A program made the position numbers and the translations under genes. Positions 2,409 to 49,427 of a DNA stretch of 64,000 nucleotides are shown piece after piece (position 1 is the first letter of the stretch; each line of letters starts with the position of its first letter). Under the pieces are notes generated by a model that saw only the letters and a list, made by a program, of their open reading frames with translations, did no database searches and was not told where the DNA came from. The stretch is from Vermamoeba vermiformis (Eukaryota): positions 1 through 64,000 of the forward strand of contig JBEWZL010000013.1 in assembly GCA_045837725.1 (NCBI GenBank). Direction: 5' to 3'.

Positions 2409-3325
2409 ATGCATCTTCAACATTCTCGCTGGTTCCACATTGAAAATTACCTCAAGATCACCCGACATCTGCGCCGCGAGCGACAAAACAGGCCAAAGAA
2501 GCAAAGAGTGATTCCCCCACGAATGCCACGGCATCAACCAGTTGGACCAATAGATATTTATGACAGAACTGGGGTTGAACGATCATCATTTACGCAAATT
2601 TTTGGCCTTGTTAAAGCTGATCTAGAAAAACCACGATCTGGAACCCGCAAGATCAGAGTCACTCTATCCTCAGCTCATCGCCTGCTAATGGTACTTCAAT
2701 GGCTATGAGAATACCCAAAATTTAAAGTAATGGCTCAACTCTATGGAGTGTCTCGCTACTTCGTGAAGCGCGAGATCCGACACCAGATTCCAATTTTATT
2801 TGTCAGATTGAATTGGATTGGCTGGCCCGGCGAATACGAGTTAAGTCCTGTTGGTGCACATGCTGCCATTGATTGCTCTGCCCATCAACGATTGCGAGTT
2901 CACCCAAATCCGCCTACTATTATCGCGGAGACAAACGAATTAATATGATGGTCAGCCAGTTTGTCGTTGGATTCAATGGAGCTTTGTACGAACTTGCTGT
3001 GGGTAAAGGACATAATAACGACCAAGCAATGTTCAATATTACGGGGGTGAAACTTCACACAGAACTCGATCAGTTAACTCTGCTCGCGGATCGCGGTTAT
3101 ATGCATCACAGAATAATCACTCCTGCCTCTGTTGATTGGTCGCAGTGCTCATCAAGTCATAGAGTCATAGTTGAAAACGTAATTGGGCAAGTGAAGAGAT
3201 TTGCCGCCGCATCTGCTACTTTTCGGCAATCGCCCGAGTTGCAAGCTCTTGTTATTGTCGTCTGTGGAGAAATTGTTGCAGAAAAGAATCGAGGCAATAC
3301 GCAGCGGTTTTTCCAGCTTGAATAA
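2409..3325 (+). mobile_element. DDE transposase of the PIF/Harbinger-IS5 type (HTH_Tnp_4 + DDE_Tnp_4-like), degenerate
   Basis: LSSAHRLLMVLQWL*EYPKFKVMAQLYGVS HTH region; catalytic motifs AIDC, LLADRGY, HRVIVENVIGQVKRF; intronless; in-frame TGA at 2706-2708 and a frameshift at ~2908. Confidence 0.85.
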
Positions 3326-3559
3326 ACACTTTTAAAGAATAAATTTTGACTTTGCACTGTCCCGTCAAAAACTTTGTCAGAAAAATTTTTTATTTTTTCA
3401 CCAGCGGAGAATGACTTCCGCTTATTGATGAACAGAGATAAAAAGGTGTGGTTTTTTTTGTGTGCGTATTTTTTTGACAAACCAAACACGAGCACAACTT
3501 GGACAAGGTATAGAGATTATTAAATTTACTATTAATACAAATAAATTACAATATTTTCC

Positions 3560-6500
3560 TTAATTTTTGCTTGATTGACGATCTATGTCTTTCGTGGTAT
3601 CTGAGGACTTGTATTGCTCATTGATCGAATCAGCACGAGCAGAACCAGAGCCAACAACATTTGATATCTTTGAACGACCAGTGCTCGCACCTGGATTTGA
3701 GCCAGTGACAGTTTGAGAGGACGCGCTGAGCTTCTCTCGTTTGTTGATGATACGATAGAACTTCAGCACGTACAAGCAAAGAATTGACACAAGCGAAGAG
3801 AACAACAGACCAATCGAGGTGATGATCGCAGCAGTGGTTGTGTCATTCACGCCAATCAACGCAACCAATGGGATAACGATAATAAATAACAGGGTCATAT
3901 TATATACCTACGTTTCCGTTAGTCACGTTCTAAATGACTCCGAAGGAAGTAACTTACGGCAAAGAAGATTTCTTTGGTCTCTTTGTACGAGCCGAAGTTG
4001 ACGTTACGCGTACGGAAAGCAAAAAAGCAACCGATGAGGAACACAACACCCTGTAAGAACGATCAGATCAAGCAACGTGATGAAGTCCAACTTACAAAGT
4101 AGCATATCTGAGTAATCATAAAGGGGAATGAGTTGTCGGAATAGCAACCAAAGATACTGTCCTTTGTTCCTTCAAACTCGAGCGGACGAAGTTCTCCGAA
4201 GAATTGCCAGATGATGAGCAAGATCTAGCAGTAATTAGTACGCGCACTTAATAATGAAATAGAATGCAACTTACGACTTCCAAGCCCAACAGAACGGATA
4301 CTACAATCATCAGCTGACTGTCTCCAATCGGCTTAATCTTCGTCAACTTCTTTCGATGCCAGTTGAAGATACGATCAATGCGATAGCTCTTGACGGCCAT
4401 AGATCCAAAGAACAGAATAAAGCCGATGCAAACGAACCACAACCAGACCATGCATTGAGGAACAACCAAGACGATTAACACAGGCGAGAACATCATTAAG
4501 CCGGCACCAACGAGCGTCATCAAGCTAAAAGTGAGTGAGGAGTGCTTGATGGTCTTGGATTCACGGTGATAAAGAGAAAGAACGATGAAACTGATCGCTG
4601 CACCAACGCACGCGCAAGAAGCTGCTATCACTCCGCCACGAACCCCATCGCTCACGGGAATGAAATTCTCTGCTGGAGTCGTTTGTCAGTAACGTTTTGC
4701 TGATAAAAAGTAATAAAACTTACGAGGATACTGAACACCACAAGTATCGAACTTGAAGGCGTTCTCAGGAACTTCAGCGATCGAATAGTTTGACGAAGAC
4801 GAGATGCGTGTGGTAACGATTCGATGCAAACCTTGGTTGCACGTGCAGTTGTCAGCCGAGCCGCTGAAAGGACCAATCGCTTGACCGCCAATCAAAAAGA
4901 TGGTTTGACTGAAGACTGTGTCGAGGAAAGTCTCTCGAGTGATGTCCAAAGTGCTGTCAATGCTATCGAGCACTTTGATCAAAAACTCGGCAACAACGTA
5001 ACCCTCCAATGAGACGAAACCGAAAGTTGAAGATGCATCACGAGCCAGCATGGCATTTTGGTACAAAGCCACGAGCTGATTGCCGTCATCGGTGGGATCA
5101 GGTACCACTTGGGTGACGTAGACATTGTCGGTAGAGACCTGAACGGCACGGAGAGAACTTGCGAATGCCTCGCTGTCGACGAAAGAAACAGTGCCAAAGA
5201 CGAGGTCAGACTTCCAAGCAAGAGCCATTTGAACGAACTGGGCGAGTTGCTCGTATGTTCCAATGAGGACAATCGCTTGAGGATCACCTTCTTGAATGGA
5301 CGAGAAGCCGTCAGCAAGGTCGAAAGTGTTGCGCTCGTAGGTGCCTTGACTTTCCAGAGACATGGAGCGGTTCTTCAAAGCCAACTGAAGACCCTCGAGT
5401 CCCGCGCTGCCGAATCCGTCGTTTTGGTAGAAGATTGAAATGCGACGAAGACCCATATTGTCGATGAAATGTTGAGCCATTGCTGCAACCTCGTCAATGT
5501 ATGAGGCGCGCACATTGACGACATTGTGATTGCACGGATTACGCAAACTGCTAGCGCCAGTGAGTGCACCAATGAATGGCACGCGATTCTCGTTGATGAT
5601 GGGCAGAATAGCCTCGGAAGGAGCTGTGCCGACAGAACCCACTAAGCCAAAGACATTGCGCTCTCCAATGAAGTAGTTCGCATTTTCGGCTGCTGGATCC
5701 GGCTCGTAGCCATCATCGCGAGACAACAAGACCAACTTGCGATTGCGAACACCGCCTTGTTTGTTTCGAGCCAAGAATGATGCCAAAATACCTTGGCGCA
5801 GGCCAACACCGAGGTCCATCACGCTACCTGCTTGTCAAATAAAATGTCAGACATTCTCTCTCGTAATCACGTACAGGTAGTTACCTAAAAGAGGAGCGGA
5901 CTGGCCAAATACAATTGGAGGCACTACATCGCCGTTCGATGAGAGGCATGTGTCCCACGTGTACTTAGTCTCGGGCATATTAACTAAAGTCCCGTTCGCG
6001 TCGATGCTCAATAAGGAGACCGAACGCATGCCTTGATTGCAAGACTTTGAATAAGGTCCTAAGAGCAAGCCAGAGAGCGTAAAATATTGGCTGGACACGA
6101 GCACGTTCAAAAAGTTCTCGTGGCTAACATCTGGATAAGCTTGGGACAGCAGGTCGATGACCAAACGACCAGTAACATAACCTGTATTATTCGTAAGGAA
6201 TGCATACTATCTTACTGGCGTGCGCTTACCTTCAAATGAGAAGGTGGTCACTGAAGCGGAGGCGTTGTACGCGAACAAGGCACGTTCGTATTCTTTGATC
6301 AGATAGGGCTCTGCATTCGAGTGCAATGGAATAGCTTCGGAGATGTAGACCTCGCTCAGAGATACTCCGCTAATTATAATGCAACGAGAGTTAGCTAACG
6401 GAACAATTTTTGATACGCGTTTAAATTGCGCGTACCTCGAAGTAAGTGCATTGACGAATGATTCTGCGTTGACGAATGACACAGTGATGAAGATAATCGA

Positions 6501-7749
6501 TGAGTCGAGGGCTTTAGCTAAACCGACGAATTTTGCGAGGGGCTGATATATATTAAAAGCGTGTCAATAAAAGTTCAAAAGTTCACAATCAGATCGCAAA
6601 TTCACACCAGTACCAAACTTGATTTAAAAGATACTCGTGGTAAAAGGTAACATACCGCATAAGTACCAAACATTACAACTGCTTGAGGGCGAGCTGTGCC
6701 GCCAAGGATCGATTGATAAGCAGCGTCAACATCTTCGGTATTACGGACATAAGATCCTTCGCTATGGAAGTTCAGACCAAGAGCAGCTAGACTTCCATTG
6801 AGTGCCGTGTAACCTAGTTCGATTTAATTTTATTAGCCGAGTTAAATTTAAATGAATTGAACACAATTAGACAACCCGCTCACAACTTATGAAAGATTCT
6901 GTATACGCTTACCGGCCTGTCCAAATGCGTCATTTTGGTAAAGTATCGATATACGAGAAGCGAAGCGTTGGTTGACCAAATAATCGACCATTGCGGTGGT
7001 CTCATCCAAGTAGGAAGCGCGGATGTTGATGATCGTTGGGTCCGTCGGTAATCTGAATGCCATAGAACCTGTGGCAGGTGCAATTATGGGCATATTGCTA
7101 TCCAGAGCTTGGCGAACCTTTAGAGCAGCTGAAATAAACGGAGCTTAGTACAAGAATCTAGATTCGGTTATGAATGGAACCTAAAACAAAGCTTCGGAAA
7201 ATAATATGTATACTTTCAGCGAATACGTGCATTAAGAGAGCAATTCAATCGCATGCCTTGTGCAATTTCAATTTGAGTTGAAGGTTTAATTAAATTGACA
7301 CTTGGTGATTTTGTGAATCGCTTAGTTAGGTAAAAGCCGCGACATAATAAATGCAGAGCATTTACGTAAATTACCTTGAGTAGTTGCAGTGCCAACGTAG
7401 CCAATTAAGCCAAATACATTGTCTTGCGAAATCAAGCGTTGTGTATTTACAGTGGTATTTGCCGGCTCGTAAGCGTCGTCGTAGGACACTAAATTAAGTA
7501 AAATATCACCCTTTATGCCTCCAGCATCATTGACTTCTTTGAATGCCGCCAATAATCCCTGAAAAAAGTGTCACCTGGCGCGGATCTAAATCCAAAATTT
7601 TTGGTACTCACCTGACGTATTTCTTGGCCTAGCTGTCCGTTTCCACCCGTAAATGCAGCACTTTGGCCAAATGTAACGGTAGTTGCAGCGGCCGTTGCGC
7701 CGAAAAGGATGCAGATGGCAACGACGAAGCACAAGAGGGTAGAACTCAT
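3560..7749 (-). CDS. Family C (GABA-B/Grl-like) GPCR with signal peptide, two tandem type-1 periplasmic-binding (Venus flytrap) domains and a 7TM domain; multi-exon
   Basis: Two copies of FGQSA..G..(L/M)G..(I/L)RQG..A.F..N..GG..L...DD.YEP..VFGL.G.VGT..N.RASY.DE..ISI.YQND.FG..G; 7tm_3-like motifs (KHSSLTFS, GFILFFGSMAVKSYRIDRIF, RTRNV..YKETKEI..VYN). Confidence 0.9.
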
Positions 7750-7991
7750 CGCGTCGACTAGGTTATTAAAAATATTTTCGCACAAATTGAAGACGCGTGA
7801 CTTCTTCTTTGCCTTGTAGATTTTTAAAAAGTCAAAATCGCGCTACCATTTTATTCTTTTTACTTACCGGTGGGAAAAGTCACGGAAATTCGGAGGTCCT
7901 CGGCTAAACAGGAATGGAGTATCCGCGAATGCAAATTCTCGGTGCCGATAGTTTGTTTTCTAGAAAAGGTAATTTGTGGTAATGGATTTAT

Positions 7992-12610: not shown

Positions 12611-14669
12611 TTAACGTTGTTGCTTGGAATTGTGGTACTTGAGGAACTGTTCCACGAGAGGAGCCATAGATCCGATGCCGGGATATTGCAACTGCGCAAA
12701 AACATTCATCCACAGCTCAGGAGGCAACAAATTCATTGCTTCTTGGCTTCTGAAAATATTCGCGCACAATACCATCGTATTTGCAATGACGCTCTTTCTG
12801 TACTCCAAATTGCGCTTCAAATATCGGGTAAGTTCAGGCCCGCTGCTAAAATCAGATTCAAGGAGCCAATAATTCTTAGCGAATATGGACTCCAGATCTT
12901 TCGTAGAGTTGCGCATGATAGAGCCAAGCTGGAGGGTCGTCAGTGTGTTGTTGGACTTCAAGGCTTGCACAAATTCTGAAACGGATATTCGGAGCTGAGA
13001 AACGACACATGTCCTCTTCTACCTTCAAAAAGGTGATGTTTGGATTGCATGTGATTATCTCGGCAATACTCGACAGAACCGTTCTCTTGTATTGATTGAC
13101 ATCGACAATAGTGAGATAGGTTCCTATCACAACCTTCTTCAGCGAGCTGTTGACCTTGATAGCATCACATAAGGTCGGGTACTGAGCATAGTCGAAATCT
13201 TTGCTGTGGTGACTGAAGTCGATCTCGGCGAGAGATTTGTTCACTAGGAGTACATCTGACAGCTTGAACATTGCAGCACGTGACAAACTGCAATGCGAAA
13301 GATTGAGGGACTCTAGCGTCGCGTTGACTTTCAGAGCCTCGCAGAAGTTGGTGAGGTCCGATGCTGCGAATACATTGCACGATAAATTAAGTACTTTGAG
13401 CGTTCTGTTGAGTAGAAGCGCATCACCCAGTGCTTGCAAATCGTCGCGAATGCTGCTATGCTGCAAATCAAGCCTAGTCAAGGAGGTGTTGAGCTGAAGA
13501 GCCTTGCAAATGGACTGAAAACCGCGATCGACAGTTGGGTGATTGTTGTATACGTTAAATGATTCTCGAGAACCGATAGAGAGCTCTGTAAGAGTGACGT
13601 TTCTGGCAATCAGATCCGCAACATGTTCGGCAGCAGCATTGCTGATGAGACCACGTTTCTGAGAGATGGTCAGCTTCTTTGCGGATGTGTTTTGAGCCAG
13701 GCCTTGCATCACAGGACCCATGCTGACATCGTTGAGTGAATTAGTGAGCTCCAACTCCGAGACCTTGCAGTGCTTCAAGCCATCGAGGGCGGCATCAGTG
13801 AAATTGGACAGCAGAAGGGAAGACAGAGTTAATTTCGCAGAGGCCGGCAAGTACTTTAAGCCAGCCAAGATGTCGCCGCTTGTCTGCATATTTTCAAGCT
13901 TGATTTGGACCAGCGATTGGTTCGCTTTCAACTCTTCGAAGAACTTATGTACCGCTTCAGAGGAGCAGAGACTGCCAAAGACATTCATTCGCGTGATGGA
14001 CTTGTTGGCTGCAATGCCCTTGGCGAGTTGTTCGGCCTCGTAAACGGAGCTGAATGACAAGTCAACCTCTTGAAGTGATCGGTTGACACTCAGACCATGG
14101 CTGATGTACGGCAGTCCTGCAGCTTCTACGGGACAGTCGAAGGCAAAGTGCCACAACTTCGTCTGTTGCTCGAGTAGCTGTCCGATGTATTTGCAAGCTT
14201 CGACGGACAGTACATTTTGGGATTGACCGCGAGAACGACGAAAAGTAAGATCTTCGACGGAATCATTTTCGACTAGCTTCTGGAAGATTATACTGGGCAA
14301 AGGCGTTTCGTCGAGGTGCACATGATGAATAAAGCTCAAATTAATGCGCGATCTTGCATCCAATTCAGGCTGGATTTGACGGAAAATAGTTGGAAATACC
14401 TAACCCACGTATTAAAATTGCCAAAAACCACAATAATATTAATATGATCATACTACTTACCGTTTGACAATTTGGGCACTTAGGTGCTTCGAACTTCTTT
14501 GAATGAAGTTTATTTTTGCAAACGGGACATGAGTCGCATTTCTAGGATACAATAGCGATTAGATTACGCCAACGGATAATATTAGTTGGATTAAAATCAT
14601 TAATAAAGATAACAATACGAATTAATGTACACTGGATCGCTCACTTGTGGTACTTGCCAAACGATTCAT
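12611..14669 (-). CDS. RNI-like LRR protein with N-terminal Cys cluster and C-terminal F-box-like motif (one frameshift at ~12990)
   Basis: Repeats of the N.(T/S)L..L.L type; upstream exon KCDSCPVC..KCPNCQT; C-terminal LLPPELWMNVFAQL. Confidence 0.8.
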
Positions 14670-32609: not shown

Positions 32610-35600
32610 CCGTAGTATGCACTTTACATCGGCCATTGACGTTTAGCATTGAATCGACGTCGAAGACGTGCACGAAAGGATCGGATCTCTGATCGACAAG
32701 AAGGTGAATGTTGATACCATTAAATGGTCTCAATAAACCTGAACTACTCGAGTAATAGGCGCCACTACCAAAGATGACTTTTTGGTTCACAGAATGAGGG
32801 AATTTCAAGCGATTCAACGTGTCAGAACTTGACATGTCGTGGCCAAATAGTTTGGTTGCAATTAGTATTAATATTAAACGTGCTGCCAATTGCAATGCTG
32901 ATGATTTTATGCGAGATTGAATCAAGTTAAATATGAGCATTACGAGGAAAGTGATCAAGGATCCGCCAGCTGACTTCAATGTAAGTTGGCCGCTAGAAAA
33001 TAGAAATAAATAATCTATGAATAATATTATGATCTTCTTATTAACGCTAAATAATTTATTTGAATTGATAGGAAAGGCCGTCAATAAAAATTGGTTATTT
33101 ATCAAAACAAGGAGGAAGAATTAAAACTTGGCACCGACGATGGATGATATTAAAAGACGGATTAGTGGCTTATTACAAAGATGCAAATGTAAGTGGCGGT
33201 CTCGTCGAGAGACTAAATCCGAGATTCGATTTTTTATTTCGTTTCCTACCGTATTTTGCTCATTAACAATTATATAATTTTTTTAAAAAATATTATCAAC
33301 CATAACATAGTTTCATCTGGCAGTAAGCAAGATATTTTTCGATTATCCAGTTTTCTAACATGTTGTAACTCGTGTAATAATGATCTAAATATAGCTCCTA
33401 CCTCACCGAGGTGTCATAACACTAGCTAGCAGTTCAATCATCGAACGAGAGAACTATGAGAATAAGCCCAATGCATTTTCAATCGTTACCCCAGAACGAA
33501 TTTATCATTTATTTGCTGATACCGAGGTACTTACGATTAAAATAATGATATTATAAATCCACGATAACTAATGTATAATATGCGTGCTATATTAGAAAGA
33601 AATGCTGCAATGGATTGAAGCTTTAAGAGGTGCCAGGCCCCGCGCTGTTTTGCCGCAAGAAGATGCCTCGTTAATCTCGCTATTTAAAGATCAAGTAAGA
33701 ATCATGCTGATTACACATATTACTATGATAATAATAATCTAATATTATTTTAAAATTAATTTAGAGAGCTGCCAGTGTTGGAACGGTCAAAGAAACATTT
33801 GCAAAGGATTTCAACGCATCAGAAACGGACGTAAATTCCATATTAGAGTTCTTGGAATTTAATTTCAAAGATTCAAACGCATTGGTAGACGAAGACGTCT
33901 TATTCAAATTTTTATCGTGGTTTTACCCGCTGGATCTCGACACTGAAGAACAGAAAACAGGATTCAGAAATGTAGATAAGGATAAGGAGAAAGCGAGTGC
34001 TAAGGCCAACTATACGATATCAAGAATAGCCTTTTTAGTCCACAAACCGTACGTATTTTATGGATGTCGTAGTTTTGGATCACGTCAAAACATATCATCC
34101 TTTGTTATGGATTATTTAATTAATGAATTATTAGGTGGTTTTTCGGCTCGCTAAAACTAGAAGAAACTGAAGAATTACTGCGCTCAAAGCCCTTCGTAAG
34201 AATGAGTTTGAATTTCGCGAGGCTTGTTCATTAATCTTTGCGATTATTTCATCAGGGAACTTACCTAATTAGGTTCGGCGAAGACAGAGGCAGTTTTGTC
34301 TTGTCAATGAAGGATTCATCTTCAGTCGGGCATTGGAAAATATTAACGGATCCGGAAACGAACGAACTATATTTAGAACCATCAGAAAAATTCGCGCAAT
34401 TACACATATTAGTAAATCACTATCACAATCAAAAGCCACCCAGCAGCAATCAACGGTTGACAGCGCCGTGTCAAAAACGAAGAAAAGAACGAACCTTTTT
34501 AGCGATGAGCAGTCAGCGGAACAATAGAAATCCCGAATTGAATTCTTCAGACGAGAATCATAGTAACAATAATGAAGTCAAAAAGGCGAGTTCATCGTTA
34601 GCTTCATTACGTGTGTCAGATCCGATCAATGACATTGACTTCTGCTGAGGCTGTTATTCATGAAAAACTTTCAGGTACGGTCACTTTAATCATATTACCT
34701 AATCCATATATGACTATTTTCATTACAAGGATTTCATTAACGTGGCTCTTGTTTTTTGCAGAGAATTACAATTCATACGTGTATCGATGCACGGTGAAAG
34801 GCTTCTCGTGCGCGGTGAAAGTGTTTGATTTGGAGTTTTTGCCTGAAGTGTTCGAATCAGAAGTATTCAACGAAGTCAAGTTTTTGCAAGAAGTGAGCCA
34901 CAATCCGTTGTTCGTCAAGTACTTGTACCACATCTACACTGGCAACCAATTGAAGCTATTTACGGAATATTTGCCGACAAATCTCAAATCTGTGATCAAA
35001 CAACGAGCAGCGGATAAAAAACCACTCAAAGCGGTCAGCATCCGCGACATTTCATTTGAACTAGCTCGTGCATTGAGCTTATTACACTCGCACAAACCAA
35101 AGATCATTCACCGCGATCTAAAGGTAACTAACATTATCATTGCCTAATTAGGAAAGTTCTAATTATGACACGTGTTAGCCTGATAATGTTTACGTCACGT
35201 TTGGGCCTGGTGATAAAGCCTCAGTTGTGAAGCTGGGTAATTTTGGACTATCAAAGTTTGCGACAACAAATACTGCCTCTTCAGTCGCGCTCACTGCTTC
35301 CTCGAACACGGTGCCATTGGCCTCGTTAAGTACGTACTTTCACCTGTTTAAAGTACCCTTCAAACTTACATTTCAAAGGATACATTGCACCAGAAATGCG
35401 AAGGCCACACGCACTATACGACGAATCCGTCGATGGTAAGATTGTTGTTAATAGAGTCATTGAAGCAGTTGCACTAATTCAGCTCTTGTTCAGTGTTTGG
35501 ATTTGGCCTGACGATGGTGGAGATGATCACGCTGAAGCCGACAGAGTTCATAGATGCGAATGATACCAAGTCTATGACATTACCAGAGGTACCACAAGTA

Positions 35601-44967: not shown

Positions 44968-46728
44968 TTAAAAAATTTTATTTCTTTTTGCTTTCCATGT
45001 CTTCATAGCCAACGAAAACATCGCCGAAGATTGTAAAATGTGTTGCCAGATCTCGATCGGAAAAACTTTTTCTACCTGGCGAACGATATTACACCACAAT
45101 ATAACTGCATCTACACGATATTCTCTATTTCTTTTTAAATAAGGATCAATATCTCGGCGCTTTACCACTTCGGAGTTGAGTTGAACGAGAGTTTTGTTCG
45201 CTGAAAACACATCCGCTATAATTTTGAGTTCTGATTCGGTTCGATCTTTCGACTGCGCAAATAAGTCCAAACTATCTAGCGTATAGTTATACTTTAGGCT
45301 CGGCAGTATATTTTCTAAGGTTAAAGCTGCGGGTTTTCGTCGTTTCTCCTGGATCCCGCTGCACTTTAATTCCTTTAGCGTAGTATTGTATACTATTAAA
45401 TCGCTGATAAATTGAACTAATTTCTTTTCGTTTTCTTGGTATGTCATTTGCGAAATGTCTAAACTAGTCAAATTTTGATGCTGCATAATCGCGTTGTAAA
45501 AACTCGTCAGATCTTTAACGTAAATTTCTTTCAAGGAGATTTTTGTCAATGCCTTATTGTATTGTAATAAATCTATTATTTCTTTCGTGGTAATTATGCT
45601 CTTAGGATGAAGATCCAGTGTCTGTAGTGTTGTATTTGCTTTCAGTGCGTTGAGGAGAGTCGAATCATTTCCTGTTGGCTCTTCTATGTGGAATTTTCCA
45701 AGAAATAAATGCTTCAGCGTCGTATTTGTGGCTAACTCCGCGGCGAAATTTTTCAGGTGATCCACATCCAACAATAAATCATTGCCTGAACTATATTTTC
45801 GCTTATTTATCGTCAATGACCTTAATATATTATTACTGTTATTTTCCAACAAATGACCGGTAATTATTTTCATGCCCTCAGGCGAAATTCCGAGGATCTT
45901 AAATGACTCGATCGTTGGATGACATTTGACTGCTAATACTATCAGCTGAACATCTTCTATCAATTGAGTATTACTAGAGTCTATTATTAATGTCTTTAAT
46001 GACCTGTTTGCGGCAATTGCATCAGACAGATCCGAATAATTCTCTGGATAAAAAATGTTCAGTTCAAATAGCTCCAATTTCGTTGAATTGCGCAATATAT
46101 TCACAATAGACGTTAACACATTATCTATAGTTGGTATAAGTGATAGTTGTAGCTTGGTAATGTTGCTGCTCAAAACGAATCTATCAAAGCCAGATCCAAC
46201 TCCTTTCGTGTTGTTTAAAACCAGCCGTTTTAGATTTCTATTCGTATATAATAGATCAAATAATGGATCTAATATAAACTCGGGTATATCAGATAGCTCT
46301 AAGGATTCCACCGATGATCCGTTGATTGCTTTTGCCAAGATCTCGATCGATTGTTTGTCTGTCAGGACTGAAGTGACATGATCGGACAATATGAGCTTTT
46401 TAATAGTCTTATTCTTGCTCAAACAATTAGCTAGCAATTGCATTTGTTCGGATGTGACATAAGCAGTTGATCCAAAATAGCGACGTCTGAACTGGATCTC
46501 GAGTCTTCTTAATGCCGAATTGTTCAAAATAAATTCAACGATGTCATATGATTTATCATCTTCAACTGAAATCTCTATAACTAGTTCGTCAAGTGATCGC
46601 ATCTGGGCGACATGTTCGGCTAACTGTGGTAGTGAACAGCTTCCCGGATAAATAATTATTCGGTCCTTGGGCACAATTATATCGTCGCGCACTGAGTTGG
46701 GGAGAAAAATGAAAGGAGAGGCCTGCAT
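44968..46728 (-). CDS. RNI-like LRR protein with C-terminal F-box-like motif; paralog of the 12611-14669 gene; 5' exon(s) probably missing
   Basis: 586-aa ORF with N.TL..L.L repeats; YLKRNREYR..FPIEIWQHIL; preceded by a splice acceptor. Confidence 0.82.
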   Translation of the reverse strand: MQASPFIFLPNSVRDDIIVPKDRIIIYPGSCSLPQLAEHVAQMRSLDELVIEISVEDDKSYDIVEFILNNSALRRLEIQFRRRYFGSTAYVTSEQMQLLANCLSKNKTIKKLILSDHVTSVLTDKQSIEILAKAINGSSVESLELSDIPEFILDPLFDLLYTNRNLKRLVLNNTKGVGSGFDRFVLSSNITKLQLSLIPTIDNVLTSIVNILRNSTKLELFELNIFYPENYSDLSDAIAANRSLKTLIIDSSNTQLIEDVQLIVLAVKCHPTIESFKILGISPEGMKIITGHLLENNSNNILRSLTINKRKYSSGNDLLLDVDHLKNFAAELATNTTLKHLFLGKFHIEEPTGNDSTLLNALKANTTLQTLDLHPKSIITTKEIIDLLQYNKALTKISLKEIYVKDLTSFYNAIMQHQNLTSLDISQMTYQENEKKLVQFISDLIVYNTTLKELKCSGIQEKRRKPAALTLENILPSLKYNYTLDSLDLFAQSKDRTESELKIIADVFSANKTLVQLNSEVVKRRDIDPYLKRNREYRVDAVILWCNIVRQVEKVFPIEIWQHILQSSAMFSLAMKTWKAKRNKIF

Positions 46729-46889
46729 CTGAATGTAAAAAATAAAAATAATTATTAGTTTTTGTTCACCCGGCCTCTGTCACAATTAAACGTTATTATT
46801 AAAAATTGGTATTAATAATCATATATTTTATTATTATTTAATAGTTGTTGACTAGTCAAAGAAAAATTATGTAATGACGCAGAAAAAAA

Positions 46890-47700
46890 CAGGTGTACGA
46901 ACAAGAAAAACGGAGAGGCCCCAGACCCACGCAACCCGACCCTGTCGCACCGCCGCTAAGCGAGTACGTCTCCCCTCCTCCCTTTGCTCCCTTTGCTTCT
47001 TTTGAGCTCACGGACAAAACAGACAACCCCGAACGCGAGGCGACCGCGCCGCCGCTCGTCGCTCGCTCGCGGCCGTCGCGCAACAGCCGACGGGGCAGGT
47101 CCTCTCCCCCAATACGACGAAGGCCCGCCCCGGGCCGGGGGCGGGGCCCCCCCCGGGGGGCCGCGCCGGCGGCGAGGGCCAATGGGGGGAGGGGCGGAGG
47201 CGCCGGACGGGAGGGGTTTAGAGGGGGGGTTCCCGGTTATGTTTTTGGGTAGGGGGAGTAGAGCGGCGGGAGTGTTGGTGCGGCGGTGGCGGAGGGATGG
47301 GGGGTTTTTGTTCGGGTTTGTGGGGCGTTGTTTTGGTTTTTTGGAGTTTGTGTGTTTGAGAATGGGTGCGGTTTGGGGTAAGTTGAGGTAAGGGAGGGGG
47401 GGGGGGGGGAGTGGGGTGGGTAAGAGGGGTGTGTTGGGGCTGCAGTGACTGAGGGGGGGGGGGAGGTGGTTTTTGGTTCGGTAGAGGGTGTTTTTTTTGC
47501 CGGGATTTTGAGGGTAGGGTGGGGAGAGTGTGCTGGGAGGGTGATGTGTTAGGGGAGGGTAGGGGGGGGGTGAGATTTTTGAGGAGAATGGTTTGTTTGT
47601 TTTAATATATTGAAGTATCTCTATTTAACGTTGGGGGGGGGGTTGGGGAGGTGGGGGGGGGGGGGGGAAGTTTTTATGAGAAAAGGAGAGGGAAAGGGCG
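46890..47700. other. GC-rich low-complexity, strand-skewed tract; probably low-quality sequence
   Basis: Abrupt composition change, long G/T homopolymer runs, no credible ORF. Confidence 0.6.
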
Positions 47701-47759
47701 GTCCGTTGCCGGGAGCGATGCGTCACCGCGTAAAGAGGGTGTGTACGTCTGCCTTCACA

Positions 47760-49427
47760 ATTACCTCAAATCCTTTAGATCGGAGTTAAACAAGATTTGG
47801 CATGTAAGACTAAAGTTTGGAAGAAGAAAAACAAATAAATTGGTGTTTGACTTGTGGGGTTCGGTCAAAAAGGCGGCTGAAAAATCCTGGCTGTCGTTTT
47901 TTGAAGAACGTTGTTGGTTCATCCAAAAAACCAACAAACCAACGATGGCTACGCGATCTTTCGCGACCCTTATCCCGTTGCGTTGCTGTTTAGTGTGTTG
48001 GTTGCACATTTTGTACAAAATTCCAAGTTTGGTTGAAGCGAGCGTTTTAATTTATTCCAGATCCAGAGGATCTAAACCCACGTGGACATTATTCGTGAGA
48101 CGGTTTAAATAGCCACAACATCTTCGTATGAGGAAGGACAGCTATATTTCTCCACACGCGAACCATTTTCACGTTGTTAGCGCCGGTGAATTCTTCCGTC
48201 AATACTAAGTGCTCCAATTTTGGTACAACGACGCTATTGATAATAGCAAAACTTGGCAGATCTGCATCGATCGATCGTACTGTGAGGACTGGTTTGACAG
48301 TACGTAATGTCTCGATCAATTTAACATTTGCGGGGACTGGCTGCTGACCCGTCCAAAGGCCATCTATCAAATAACTCATTAAAATCCACAAAAATAGTGT
48401 AAAATTAAAAATAATATCGTTTTGTTAGTATAAAATGATAATAGTAAAGTCGTTTTGATAGAATATTAATTCTACGGTACCTTCAACTGTCGTTGTTTTG
48501 ACCGACATCCATGCAGATCCGTCAGGTGACCATCTCCAATCGCCATCAGCATAAATGTAGTAAATCGGAGTAGCGCCTGCTTCCCAATTAAGGAAAGCAA
48601 GACTATATTTGGAAATTTGTCCCTTGGATGTGAAACTGGTCGGCGCTGGTATTCCGAATATAGGACCGAAGTTATCGTGGTATAATATCGAGTTCATACG
48701 GTTTAAATAATGACTATATTCCATATCATTGATGCGTACTAATGGAACAACAGTCATGCTCGGTGCTGCAGAGATAGTAATGTCAGATCTGATTTTCAAA
48801 TAAAATTATGAGACTTAAAAATTTACCTTGCAGAGCCTCGCTTTGATTAGGTGTAATATTAAGCTCTAAATGAATTATTTAGCACTTAGAATGCGATAAA
48901 GGGAGCAGAGATTCGGATCTTACTGGATCTGCGCGATCGAAACAACGTTTTAACGCAATCTTGCCACGAAGCAAAGCATTTAGGCACTAAATAGTCTTCG
49001 CCTAAATAAAACTATAATAGGGTTAGCATTGAAGGCGATAAACACGCGAAGAAATTTCTCGATCAGCTTACCCCAACATTTTTATCTTCCCCTAGCATTT
49101 GAAAGTGATGCTTGAAACATAGATGCCATAATGTATCGTTAAATAGGGTCTGCCAGGTCTTGCAAACGGATTGACTGCGAGCGAACGGCACCGCTAGAAA
49201 ACTCGATCAGAACAGGAATTCCAACCCCAAAAATTACGAATATTATTTAGCTTGCAACAAATATTACCACATATCGAAACAAATAATAATTAGCGAATTG
49301 AACGTCTCAGATTATTCAGCACGTGTCATTGCAAATATTTGAAAATCTTTTTGATTGGCTTACCCTCTAAGTACGAGAATATCTGCGGCCATATCTCTAC
49401 GGGAATATTTTGAATAATATCTTCCAT
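47760..49427 (-). CDS. N-terminal F-box protein with unrecognised C-terminal domain (3' end uncertain)
   Basis: Exon 1 MEDIIQNIPVEIWPQIFSYLE; exon 2 QSVCKTWQTLFNDTLW. Confidence 0.72.

Follow-up and report, generated by a model that had tools for sequence, protein, structure and literature searches.

To our knowledge, all G-protein-coupled receptors (GPCRs) of class C studied to date are activated through a pair of Venus-flytrap domains (VFTs) supplied by two chains; in the GABA-B receptor, the VFT of one partner, GABA-B2, is not known to bind an agonist. The seventh transmembrane helix (TM7) of the wider class carries the motif xPKxY. Among bacterial sensors with flytrap ectodomains, BvgS and EvgS use a class of periplasmic binding protein (PBP) different from that of the receptor described below. 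Outside Metazoa, the available portions of published accounts describe receptors in which a single PBP-type ectodomain is joined to a 7tm_3 domain, including the Dictyostelium Grl proteins, diatom PBP1+7tm_3 receptors and an architecture given as '/Peripla_BP//7tm_3/' (PMC3971589, PMC3727952, PMC12716839). More than one VFT per chain is described, again in sources available in part, for the receptor-type adenylate cyclases of trypanosomatids, with two extracellular VFTs (PMC6027212), and for the bacterial sensor kinase BvgS, with tandem VFTs (PMC4352136).

The gene described here lies on contig JBEWZL010000013.1 of the Vermamoeba vermiformis assembly GCA_045837725.1, within the stretch of 64,000 nucleotides that was analysed (hereafter, the window), and its predicted product resembles each of these systems in part. 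Like the Dictyostelium and diatom receptors, it joins an ectodomain of the bacterial PBP type to 7tm_3, but those proteins have one ligand-binding domain in the published accounts, as far as these are available, whereas two VFTs are present here. Tandem VFTs in series ahead of a membrane-embedded transducer are found both here and in BvgS and EvgS, judging from the available part of the literature; the likeness is one of architecture, and the bacterial proteins are histidine kinases. In the trypanosomatid cyclases the output is a single-pass cyclase, in contrast to the seven-transmembrane (7TM) domain of the present protein. The Pfam model of those cyclases, PF25493, passes its cut-off of 27.2 bits only in relatives, in the C-terminal part of their VFTs, which holds the cysteine pair (49 bits in P0002 and 53.5 bits in P0022), and not in the exons of the window (14.3 bits in exon 8 and 14.4 bits in exon 7).

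The coding sequence occupies positions 7749 to 3560 of the minus strand, and an ATG and a stop codon were found exactly at the two ends proposed in the preliminary description. It comprises 12 coding exons, preceded by a 5'UTR exon, and amounts to 3306 nt without the stop, or 1102 amino acids (aa), a length that follows from placing the acceptor of intron 8 at 4669 and not at 4672 (Table 1). The splice-site check of the gene model revealed GT..AG borders at every intron; the introns are 45-246 nt long. Further upstream, beyond the 5'UTR intron, a non-coding exon ends at 7868. The start of exon 8 differs between runs, being 5827 in X8 but 5830 in X4 and X11, and the latter variant adds one residue. 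The hydrophobic N-terminus immediately precedes the first strand of VFT1. GC content is 40-48%. ORFs with SH2 and kinase domains adjoin the receptor gene, and RdRP genes are also located nearby; scans of the 64-kb window for tRNA genes and for tandem repeats found none.

Table 1. Features of the receptor gene, with positions counted from the first letter of the window
Feature	Position	Strand	Basis
5'UTR intron, 55 nt	7813..7867	minus	run X4 joint 7811/7867 (cut +1); GT 7867-7866, AG 7814-7813
Start codon ATG	7749-7747	minus	read from sequence
Coding exons 1-6	7749-7612, 7558-7375, 7128-6913, 6813-6656, 6542-6436, 6369-6230	minus	exons assigned by hand
Coding exons 7-12	6181-5885, 5827-4724, 4669-4275, 4224-4096, 4050-3958, 3907-3563	minus	exons assigned by hand
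Predicted signal peptide, ~aa 1-23	7681..7749	minus	hydropathy segment 1-28; cleavage site inferred
VFT1 (distal), aa 17-389, exons 1-7	5958..7701	minus	E 7e-103 to own SBP profile (its positions 65-415)
NAGNAG alternative acceptor, intron 7	5828..5830	minus	joints 5824/5882 (cut +3), 5830/5885
VFT2 (membrane-proximal), aa 383-770	4758..5978	minus	own SBP profile E 4e-119; Pfam Peripla_BP_6 E 2.4e-34
Class C 7TM, exons 9-12	3746..4655	minus	Pfam 7tm_3 on exon 9, hydropathy segments
TM7 motif Y-V-L-K-F-Y	3755..3772	minus	sequence; alignment to 6wiv_A
Ser/Thr-rich cytoplasmic tail, ~61 aa	3563..3745	minus	translation
Stop codon	3562-3560	minus	read from sequence

The receptor gene is real and expressed. 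All 11 coding introns have been removed at GT..AG sites in intron-free contigs from 3 runs belonging to 3 studies, and every exon junction is represented in such contigs, although the mRNA chain is assembled from overlapping contigs, none of which covers the whole, and the RNA label of the runs is a guess. Because intron-free contigs bridge VFT1 to VFT2 and VFT2 to the 7TM domain, the gene yields one transcript; P0001, an uninterrupted ORF of 777 aa that is 90% identical over exon 8, likewise extends across the end of VFT1, VFT2 and the 7TM domain. It is extremely unlikely that two adjacent genes, one for a secreted binding protein and the other for a one-flytrap GPCR, have been misread as one. 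Nothing speaks for such a misreading other than the uneven distribution of introns, and it is contradicted by exon 7, whose single frame carries both the VFT1 end and VFT2's first strand, by contigs that join exons 6-7, 7-8 (the end of VFT1 to VFT2) and 8-9 (VFT2 to the 7TM domain), and by the presence of the VFT1-VFT2 junction both inside the ORF of P0001 and within one uninterrupted match of L001, an orthologue from a metagenome. Moreover, neither a stop codon nor a second signal peptide separates VFT1 from VFT2.

The ectodomain consists of two complete and mutually similar bacterial-type VFTs, as the preliminary description had proposed. A solute-binding protein (SBP) profile that we built from 99 relatives of bacterial length (420-500 aa) matches the spliced protein twice, each time over the full profile. 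Aligned with each other, VFT1 and VFT2 share 37% identity over 370 aa (E 6e-81), well above what chance would give. When exons were searched singly, Pfam Peripla_BP_6 was recovered in exon 8 (E 2.4e-34) and exon 2 (E 3e-13), with a further match in exon 3 (E 8e-06) that, at 26.2 bits, falls under the cut-off of 31.7 bits. The tether between the domains is of about 10 residues. The motifs listed in the preliminary description are kept in both VFTs, except that DDGYEP is exact in VFT2 only and reads DDAYEP in VFT1. Each domain is closed by the same conserved cysteine pair (CNQG...DTC in VFT1), the columns of which are invariant in an alignment of 20 relatives; this terminal pair is an addition of the eukaryotic domains relative to bacterial ABC-transporter SBPs of the 4kv7 type (Peripla_BP_6), which occur free in the periplasm, measure about 430 aa, lack a 7TM domain and are 40-47% identical to each VFT. 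Indeed, both VFTs are at least as similar to bacterial SBPs as to one another: across 99 bacterial proteins, identity reaches a maximum of 46.6% for VFT2 and 43.2% for VFT1, with medians of 40.6% and 37.6%, respectively. As a yardstick of conservation, not of pocket residues, we took the columns with a conservation of at least 85% among 98 bacterial SBPs; of these 162 columns, VFT2 keeps 106 and VFT1 keeps 96.

To judge from family models, both VFTs can be placed no more narrowly than in the superfamily Peripla_BP_6. The resemblance to branched-chain amino acid receptors noted in the preliminary description thus holds at the superfamily level and does not extend to the LivJ family, the NCBIfam model of which (NF011933) requires 477 bits and gave 19.5; with 62-76 bits, the nearest bacterial relatives likewise stay under this threshold. 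The score of the UrtA model was far under its cut-off as well. The family models accordingly lend no support to a branched-chain amino acid as the ligand, and a literature search on 4KV7, the structure that is also the best solved match of P0001 (E 2e-47), returned nothing relevant to the ligand of this subfamily.

The 7TM domain of the predicted receptor is most similar to GABA-B subunits. Pfam 7tm_3 was detected in exon 9 (77.5 bits, E 1.7e-21; cut-off 33.5), with a sub-threshold match in exon 11 (24.1 bits, E 3.3e-05), and in P0001 the same model scores 143 bits and spans positions 4-250 of its 251. The best solved matches of the 7TM domain are GABA-B1 and GABA-B2 (E 1.5e-17 to 1e-14), followed by metabotropic glutamate receptors (2e-13 and weaker). 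When the 7TM region of P0001 was used as the query of a word-index search, only 2 matches came up, namely P0001 itself and one 475-aa protein (2e-9). The cysteines of TM3 and of extracellular loop 2 (ECL2) align with those of GABA-B1 (6wiv_A), and the corresponding columns (C924 and C1008 of P0139) are invariant or nearly so in 20 relatives. As in GABA-B, the linker between the VFT and the 7TM domain is short (about 15-20 residues), and no cysteine-rich NCD3G domain was found in it by Pfam. In TM7, the YVLKF sequence reported in the preliminary description in place of the PK motif is indeed present (3772-3755): in L-K-F-Y (3766-3755), Leu occupies the position of the Pro of the GABA-B1 'PK', and the Lys, which aligns with that of GABA-B, is kept. 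Among relatives, P0008 and P0003 have P-K, and P0002 has M-K. Further differences from GABA-B are the presence of two VFTs per chain as opposed to one, the absence of any sequence match between these VFTs and those of GABA-B, all solved-structure matches being to bacterial SBPs, and a tail in which no coiled coil was seen. In the predicted fold of P0139, a relative with 35% identity, the C-terminal tail past the last helix has a pLDDT below 50, which is informative for the present protein by analogy only. With a 7tm_3 domain, the TM3 and ECL2 cysteines and predicted extracellular VFTs, the protein can be assigned on sequence features to class C (the Glutamate family) of GPCRs; since GABA-B1 and GABA-B2 are nearest by E-value, we refer to the 7TM domain as GABA-B-like and do not file the protein as a member of the GABA-B subfamily.

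The tandem-VFT class C architecture is not unique to this gene and appears to recur in protist database sequences. Two or three VFTs, detected as at least 2 stretches of Peripla_BP_6, together with 7tm_3 were present in 14 of the 52 database relatives scanned with Pfam, with 3 VFTs in P0002, P0003, P0136 and P0138. The preliminary description had regarded its own proposal as void if the architecture were already widely catalogued; at least 14 database proteins and the metagenome orthologue do carry it, but in the parts of the literature that were searched no account of class C receptors with tandem VFTs came up. The protein aligns over its full length with several relatives, among them P0002 (39% over 1085 columns), P0139 (35%) and P0021 (34%), and, having at least 2 VFTs with the cysteine pair followed collinearly by 7tm_3, it fits, by its sequence, a multi-VFT class C family. 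The architecture is also retained in L001, in which the end of VFT1 together with VFT2 forms a single uninterrupted match of 1467 nt with 65% identity, the 7TM pieces are 52-66% identical and the VFT1 pieces only 41-52%, so that conservation between the orthologues is far lower in VFT1 than in VFT2. Structure prediction for P0139 placed both VFTs and the 7TM domain mostly at pLDDT 80-97, and 4kv7 heads the structural matches of this predicted fold (TM 0.90, rmsd 2.2 Å); after bacterial SBPs, the best full-length matches are GABA-B chains, over 715-756 columns. With a pTM of only 0.46 at full length, however, the model does not define the VFT1-VFT2-7TM geometry.

The intron asymmetry between the two VFTs, pointed out in the preliminary description, is real: VFT1 contains 6 internal introns, whereas VFT2, the first strand of which is encoded in exon 7, has a single intron 30 aa past its start and is otherwise contained in one exon of 1104 nt (exon 8). 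This had been taken to suggest retro-duplication or separate acquisition. A later, separate VFT2 would have come in by bacterial transfer or retro-insertion, behind a VFT1 that was already there and ahead of the 7TM domain. Such an event would account for the single large exon, given that VFT2 has almost no introns here and none in L001, and VFT2 is slightly nearer to bacterial SBPs than VFT1 in both maximum and median identity. Nevertheless, we consider it very unlikely. The GC content at third codon positions is native (GC3 of 0.56 in VFT2, 0.54-0.58 in the 7TM domain and 0.38-0.57 in other ORFs of the window), every eukaryotic domain falls outside the single sampled bacterial clade in both VFT-domain trees (100% SH-aLRT), the second of which is a quick PMSF tree, and tandem VFTs are found throughout the family. 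Furthermore, a sister relationship of VFT1 and VFT2 was not rejected in the AU test (p 0.57), the constrained tree being better by 2.2 log-likelihood units. As the deep branching of VFTs does not resolve in either tree, we claim no order of duplication. The tandem arrangement is probably old and recurrent across the family and not a recent foreign insertion, a view that we hold jointly with the functional reading set out below and with the same moderate confidence.

That reading, on balance the probable one, is that the protein is a GABA-B-like class C GPCR with two solute-competent tandem VFTs that act in series. Both VFTs would be competent solute binders, because most conserved bacterial SBP positions are kept in each, and the tether lengths suggest the serial arrangement. 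VFT2, coupled directly to the 7TM domain as in GABA-B, would be the transducing module, and closure of VFT1 would be passed on through it, giving one G-protein output in which the signals of two solutes, or of a single solute bound with two affinities, might be combined. Such a receptor would probably sense extracellular nutrients. The faster divergence of VFT1 between orthologues is what would be expected if its specificity diversifies and VFT2 is held by coupling. The same contrast with L001 could, however, reflect a division of labour in which ligand binding falls to one VFT only, the other being closed or unable to bind and having a structural or allosteric role; the VFT of GABA-B2 would be a precedent. 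Many relatives have a far more diverged membrane-proximal domain, with long branches and, in several of them, only 54-76 of the 162 conserved SBP columns, which indicates that the family tolerates one degenerate flytrap. We regard this as a less likely but serious candidate, given that in the present protein both VFTs are conservative by this yardstick and share the same motifs.

The preliminary description also considered that VFT1 and VFT2 of the same chain pack against each other like the canonical class C VFT dimer, such that one chain suffices for signalling, as the similarity of the two domains, the shortness of their tether and the established requirement for a VFT pair in canonical class C activation would allow. 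This appears quite improbable: the full-length model of P0139 contains no confident VFT1-VFT2 packing, relatives with 3 VFTs do not fit a simple pair, and a lone 7TM domain would have to signal without the 7TM-7TM rearrangement of known class C receptors. Two serially acting, solute-competent VFTs thus remain our preferred explanation. A broader proposal, which we consider doubtful, is that tandem VFTs replace the obligate inter-chain VFT dimer, as an in-chain pair or a logic gate that requires binding of both solutes, in a receptor that could signal as a monomer, and that repeated tandem duplications of a binding domain of bacterial type gave rise to them in protists, with further use of the cassette ahead of cyclase, phosphodiesterase and kinase outputs. 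If true, monomer signalling would be a different way of activating class C receptors.

The present gene belongs to a multi-VFT family and is no singular oddity. The presence of 2-3 flytraps in one chain raises the questions of whether dimerisation is still needed, by which route closure of the distal flytrap reaches the 7TM domain and whether two solutes can be integrated by a single receptor. With VFTs 40-47% identical to free bacterial binding proteins, this receptor offers an unusually direct view of the transition from transporter protein to receptor ectodomain. VFT relatives in protists also carry cyclase, phosphodiesterase or kinase outputs, and the occurrence of the multi-VFT cassette on 7TM, guanylate or adenylate cyclase, phosphodiesterase and kinase outputs points to modular environmental sensing outside animals.

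The receptor gene consists of 12 coding exons, as read by hand from the sequence, with GT..AG borders at all introns, which are 45 to 113 nt long with the exception of intron 2 (246 nt). Four sequencing runs were aligned to the window, and contigs of 3 of them (X4, X8, and X11, from 3 studies under 3 coded organism labels and with a guessed "RNA" label) lack all 11 coding introns, each excised at CT..AC as seen on the plus strand. The contig junctions agreed with the hand-read model except at the acceptor of intron 8, a NAGNAG tandem (4669-4672, minus strand) of which the downstream site alone was seen in the contigs; therefore, exon 9 begins at 4669 and the protein is 1102 aa long. The tandem acceptor of intron 7 (5827-5830, minus strand) is used at 5827 in X8 and at 5830 in X4 and X11, which changes the protein by one residue.

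The distal flytrap domain (VFT1, exons 1-7), the membrane-proximal one (VFT2, end of exon 7 and exon 8), and the 7-transmembrane domain (7TM, exons 9-12) belong to a single transcript, as the preliminary description had supposed. Exons 7 and 8 are bridged by record 10 of X8 and record 7 of X4, and exons 8, 9, and 10 by record 5 of X4, record 3 of X11, and record 10 of X8, with no contig among those aligned covering the entire mRNA. Furthermore, P0001, a database relative 90% identical over exon 8, is an uninterrupted ORF of 777 aa which spans the end of VFT1, VFT2, and the 7TM, its junction residues being identical, and exon 7 by itself reads in a single frame from the last part of VFT1 into the first strand of VFT2. 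The alternative of 2 adjacent genes is therefore contradicted, and the receptor gene is real and expressed. The gene stretch was present, in whole or in part, in 20 of the 24 listed runs (10 studies), with at least half of its words in 3. Near-identical transcripts (95-99% alike) occur in runs X4-X11 and X16-X20 under several coded organism labels, water and aquifer metagenomes being among these runs; this may point to a source organism that is widespread in fresh water as an associate or contaminant of other cultures.

Features of the receptor gene and its surroundings
Feature	Position	Strand	Evidence
Receptor gene	ATG at 7749, stop 3562-3560	-	Stop-to-stop frames and minus-strand sequence of 3500-7900
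5'UTR intron, 55 nt	7867-7813	-	X4 contigs
Harbinger/PIF-type transposase ORF fragment, just downstream of the receptor gene	2873-3322	+	DDE_Tnp_4, E 3.4e-08
Intron-free ORF, 507 aa	12879-14399	-	Leucine-rich-repeat matches (LRR_6)
SH2 ORF, then protein-kinase ORF	34235-35144	+	E 4e-10 and E 1.5e-15; HRDLK-type catalytic loop
Two adjoining multi-exon eukaryotic RNA-dependent RNA polymerase genes	about 37.6-40.3 kb and 41.5-44.6 kb	+	Pfam RdRP over several ORF pieces in both, best E 8e-39
Intron-free ORF, 603 aa	44971-46779	-	Repetitive look similar to 12879-14399; no Pfam match
Strong GC skew (+0.26)	46000-48000		No tandem repeat called at score 80
Pro-rich low-complexity frame	46959-47624	-	

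Elsewhere in the window, the SH2 and kinase ORFs look, from their sequence, like an SH2-Ser/Thr-type kinase, a hint at the kind of protist.

The claim that 2 flytraps and a class C 7TM reside in one protein was borne out. When single exons were searched against Pfam, Peripla_BP_6 was matched by exon 8 (E 2.4e-34), exon 2 (3e-13), and, below the cut-off, exon 3 (8e-06), and 7tm_3 by exon 9 (1.7e-21) and, below the cut-off, exon 11 (3.3e-05); neither NCD3G nor any further ectodomain family was found in these searches. In a further search, 99 database relatives with lengths of 420-500 aa were treated as bacterial solute-binding proteins (SBPs) and combined into a profile, which matched the spliced protein twice over the full profile length: aa 17-389 (E 7e-103) for VFT1 and aa 383-770 (E 4e-119) for VFT2. 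P0026, which is among the 99, subsequently grouped with a eukaryotic domain and was excluded from then on, leaving 98. VFT1 and VFT2 share 37% identity over 370 aa, versus a maximum of 43.2% (median 37.6%) and 46.6% (median 40.6%), respectively, to the 99 bacterial-length proteins; thus, neither flytrap is closer to its neighbour than to bacterial proteins. Each terminates in a Cys pair (CNQG...C) at columns invariant in a 20-relative alignment. Hydropathy indicates a signal-like segment at the N-terminus and transmembrane segments clustered between aa 791 and 1041, with tethers of approximately 10 residues between VFT1 and VFT2 and approximately 15-20 between VFT2 and TM1. The protein thus combines a secreted-type N-terminus with 2 flytraps, both complete and conservative, that follow each other on short tethers ahead of a GABA-B-like 7TM.

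Solved-structure searches, run with the 90% relative P0001 as query, matched its flytrap to bacterial structures only (4kv7, 2e-47; 3lop; 4m88), with no class C VFT among the matches. Its 7TM was closest to GABA-B1/B2 (1.5e-17 to about 1e-14), followed by mGluRs (2e-13 and weaker); in the GABA-B1 alignment, the TM3 and ECL2 cysteines are aligned and "LK" stands where GABA-B1 has "PK," confirming the reported absence of the usual PK from TM7. The bacterial character of the flytraps, supported by 4kv7 and the SBP profile, holds, but the likeness to branched-chain amino acid receptors is one of superfamily only: the NCBIfam LivJ and UrtA models scored far below their cut-offs for both VFT2 and its nearest bacterial relatives. 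The fold was predicted for a full-length relative, P0139 (35% identical to the window protein; 20-row alignment). Mean pLDDT was 80, with both VFTs and the 7TM mostly at 80-97; pTM was just 0.46, and therefore the mutual placement of the 3 domains is not defined by the model. Foldseek with this model returned 4kv7 on top (TM 0.90), followed by GABA-B chains (715-756 columns, TM about 0.4).

One rival, improbable explanation of the tandem is later insertion of VFT2, the preliminary description having read the uneven distribution of introns as retro-duplication or separate acquisition. The asymmetry is real and is kept in an orthologue with the same domain order on metagenome contig L001 (a second contig, L002, carries a shorter copy of this type). 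There, VFT1 matches in pieces (41-52%) and the 7TM at 52-66% identity, and the end of VFT1 plus VFT2 form a single uninterrupted match of 1467 nt (2814-4280, 65% identity); intron 7 is missing, its flanking exons 7 and 8 corresponding to one continuous stretch. Nothing in the trees, the approximately unbiased (AU) test, or GC3 suggests that VFT2 came recently from a foreign source. In 2 quick trees, restricted to domains that span 270 or more profile positions (LG+G4 with 81 domains and, of the 99 bacterial-length proteins, every 4th; PMSF with 46 domains and every 8th of 98 after removal of P0026), the sampled bacterial proteins formed one clade without any eukaryotic domain (100% SH-aLRT in both), and the eukaryotic domains a poorly resolved bush. 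VFT1 had, with weak support, the distal domains of P0002, P0021, and P0022 as its neighbours, and the 2 domains of P0139 were sisters (95). A single clade of VFT1 plus the VFT2 group, chosen after seeing the tree, was not rejected (p 0.57), the constrained tree being better by 2.2 log-likelihood units. GC3 was 0.46 in VFT1, 0.56 in VFT2, and 0.54-0.58 in the 7TM (0.38 to 0.57 in other window ORFs). A duplication within the protein long ago, perhaps occurring more than once in separate lineages, is no less likely.

Functionally, both flytraps would bind small solutes, with VFT2 acting as the transducing module and VFT1, faster-evolving, as an extra sensor whose state would be passed on via VFT2 to a probable heterotrimeric G protein output. 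Less likely rival explanations are that one of the flytraps is silent or that the two form an intramolecular pseudo-dimer. VFT1 retains 96 and VFT2 106 of the 162 columns with at least 85% conservation among the 98 bacterial proteins; in the proximal domains of several relatives, the number is just 54-76.

The architecture recurs among relatives. The whole-library HMMER search gave 9984 matches at E <= 1e-3, of which 643 reached E <= 1e-30; judged from the 150 listed, many of the matches are bacterial-sized binding proteins. Pfam scanning of 52 relatives (9 + 14 + 29, the last being part of the long hits among those 150) detected 7tm_3 in 22, of which 14 have at least 2 Peripla_BP_6 stretches: 2 in P0005, P0008, P0013, P0031, P0048, P0021, P0022, P0029, P0139, and P0143 (P0008, P0013, P0031, and P0048 being mutually close) and 3 in P0002, P0003, P0136, and P0138. 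P0001, P0041, and P0144, scored as single-VFT, are N-terminally cut, with the tail of an upstream VFT still visible. The window protein aligns collinearly end to end with P0002 (39% over 1085 columns), P0139 (35%), P0021 (34%), P0143 and P0136 (31%), P0005 (30%), P0022 (29%), and P0008 (27%). The multi-VFT module is also found on Guanylate_cyc (P0006, P0014, P0147, P0153, and P0157), protein kinase (P0016 and P0017), and Ephrin_rec_like regions, and on PDEase_I (P0156). Tandem flytraps precede the cyclic-nucleotide phosphodiesterase domain in P0156 and guanylate/adenylate cyclase domains in P0147, P0153, and P0157; the sensor cassette is thus common to several output types.

Tandem VFTs in one chain, as in the window protein, are described for trypanosome receptor adenylate cyclases (PMC6027212) and bacterial BvgS/EvgS (PMC4352136 and others). 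For protist class C receptors, PMC12716839, PMC3727952, and PMC3971589 describe single ANF/PBP-type ectodomains. In a literature search that covered few subscription journals, no paper reporting tandem flytraps in a class C GPCR was found, a provisional negative. The window gene is a member of a recurrent, seemingly undescribed family of protist multi-flytrap class C receptors.
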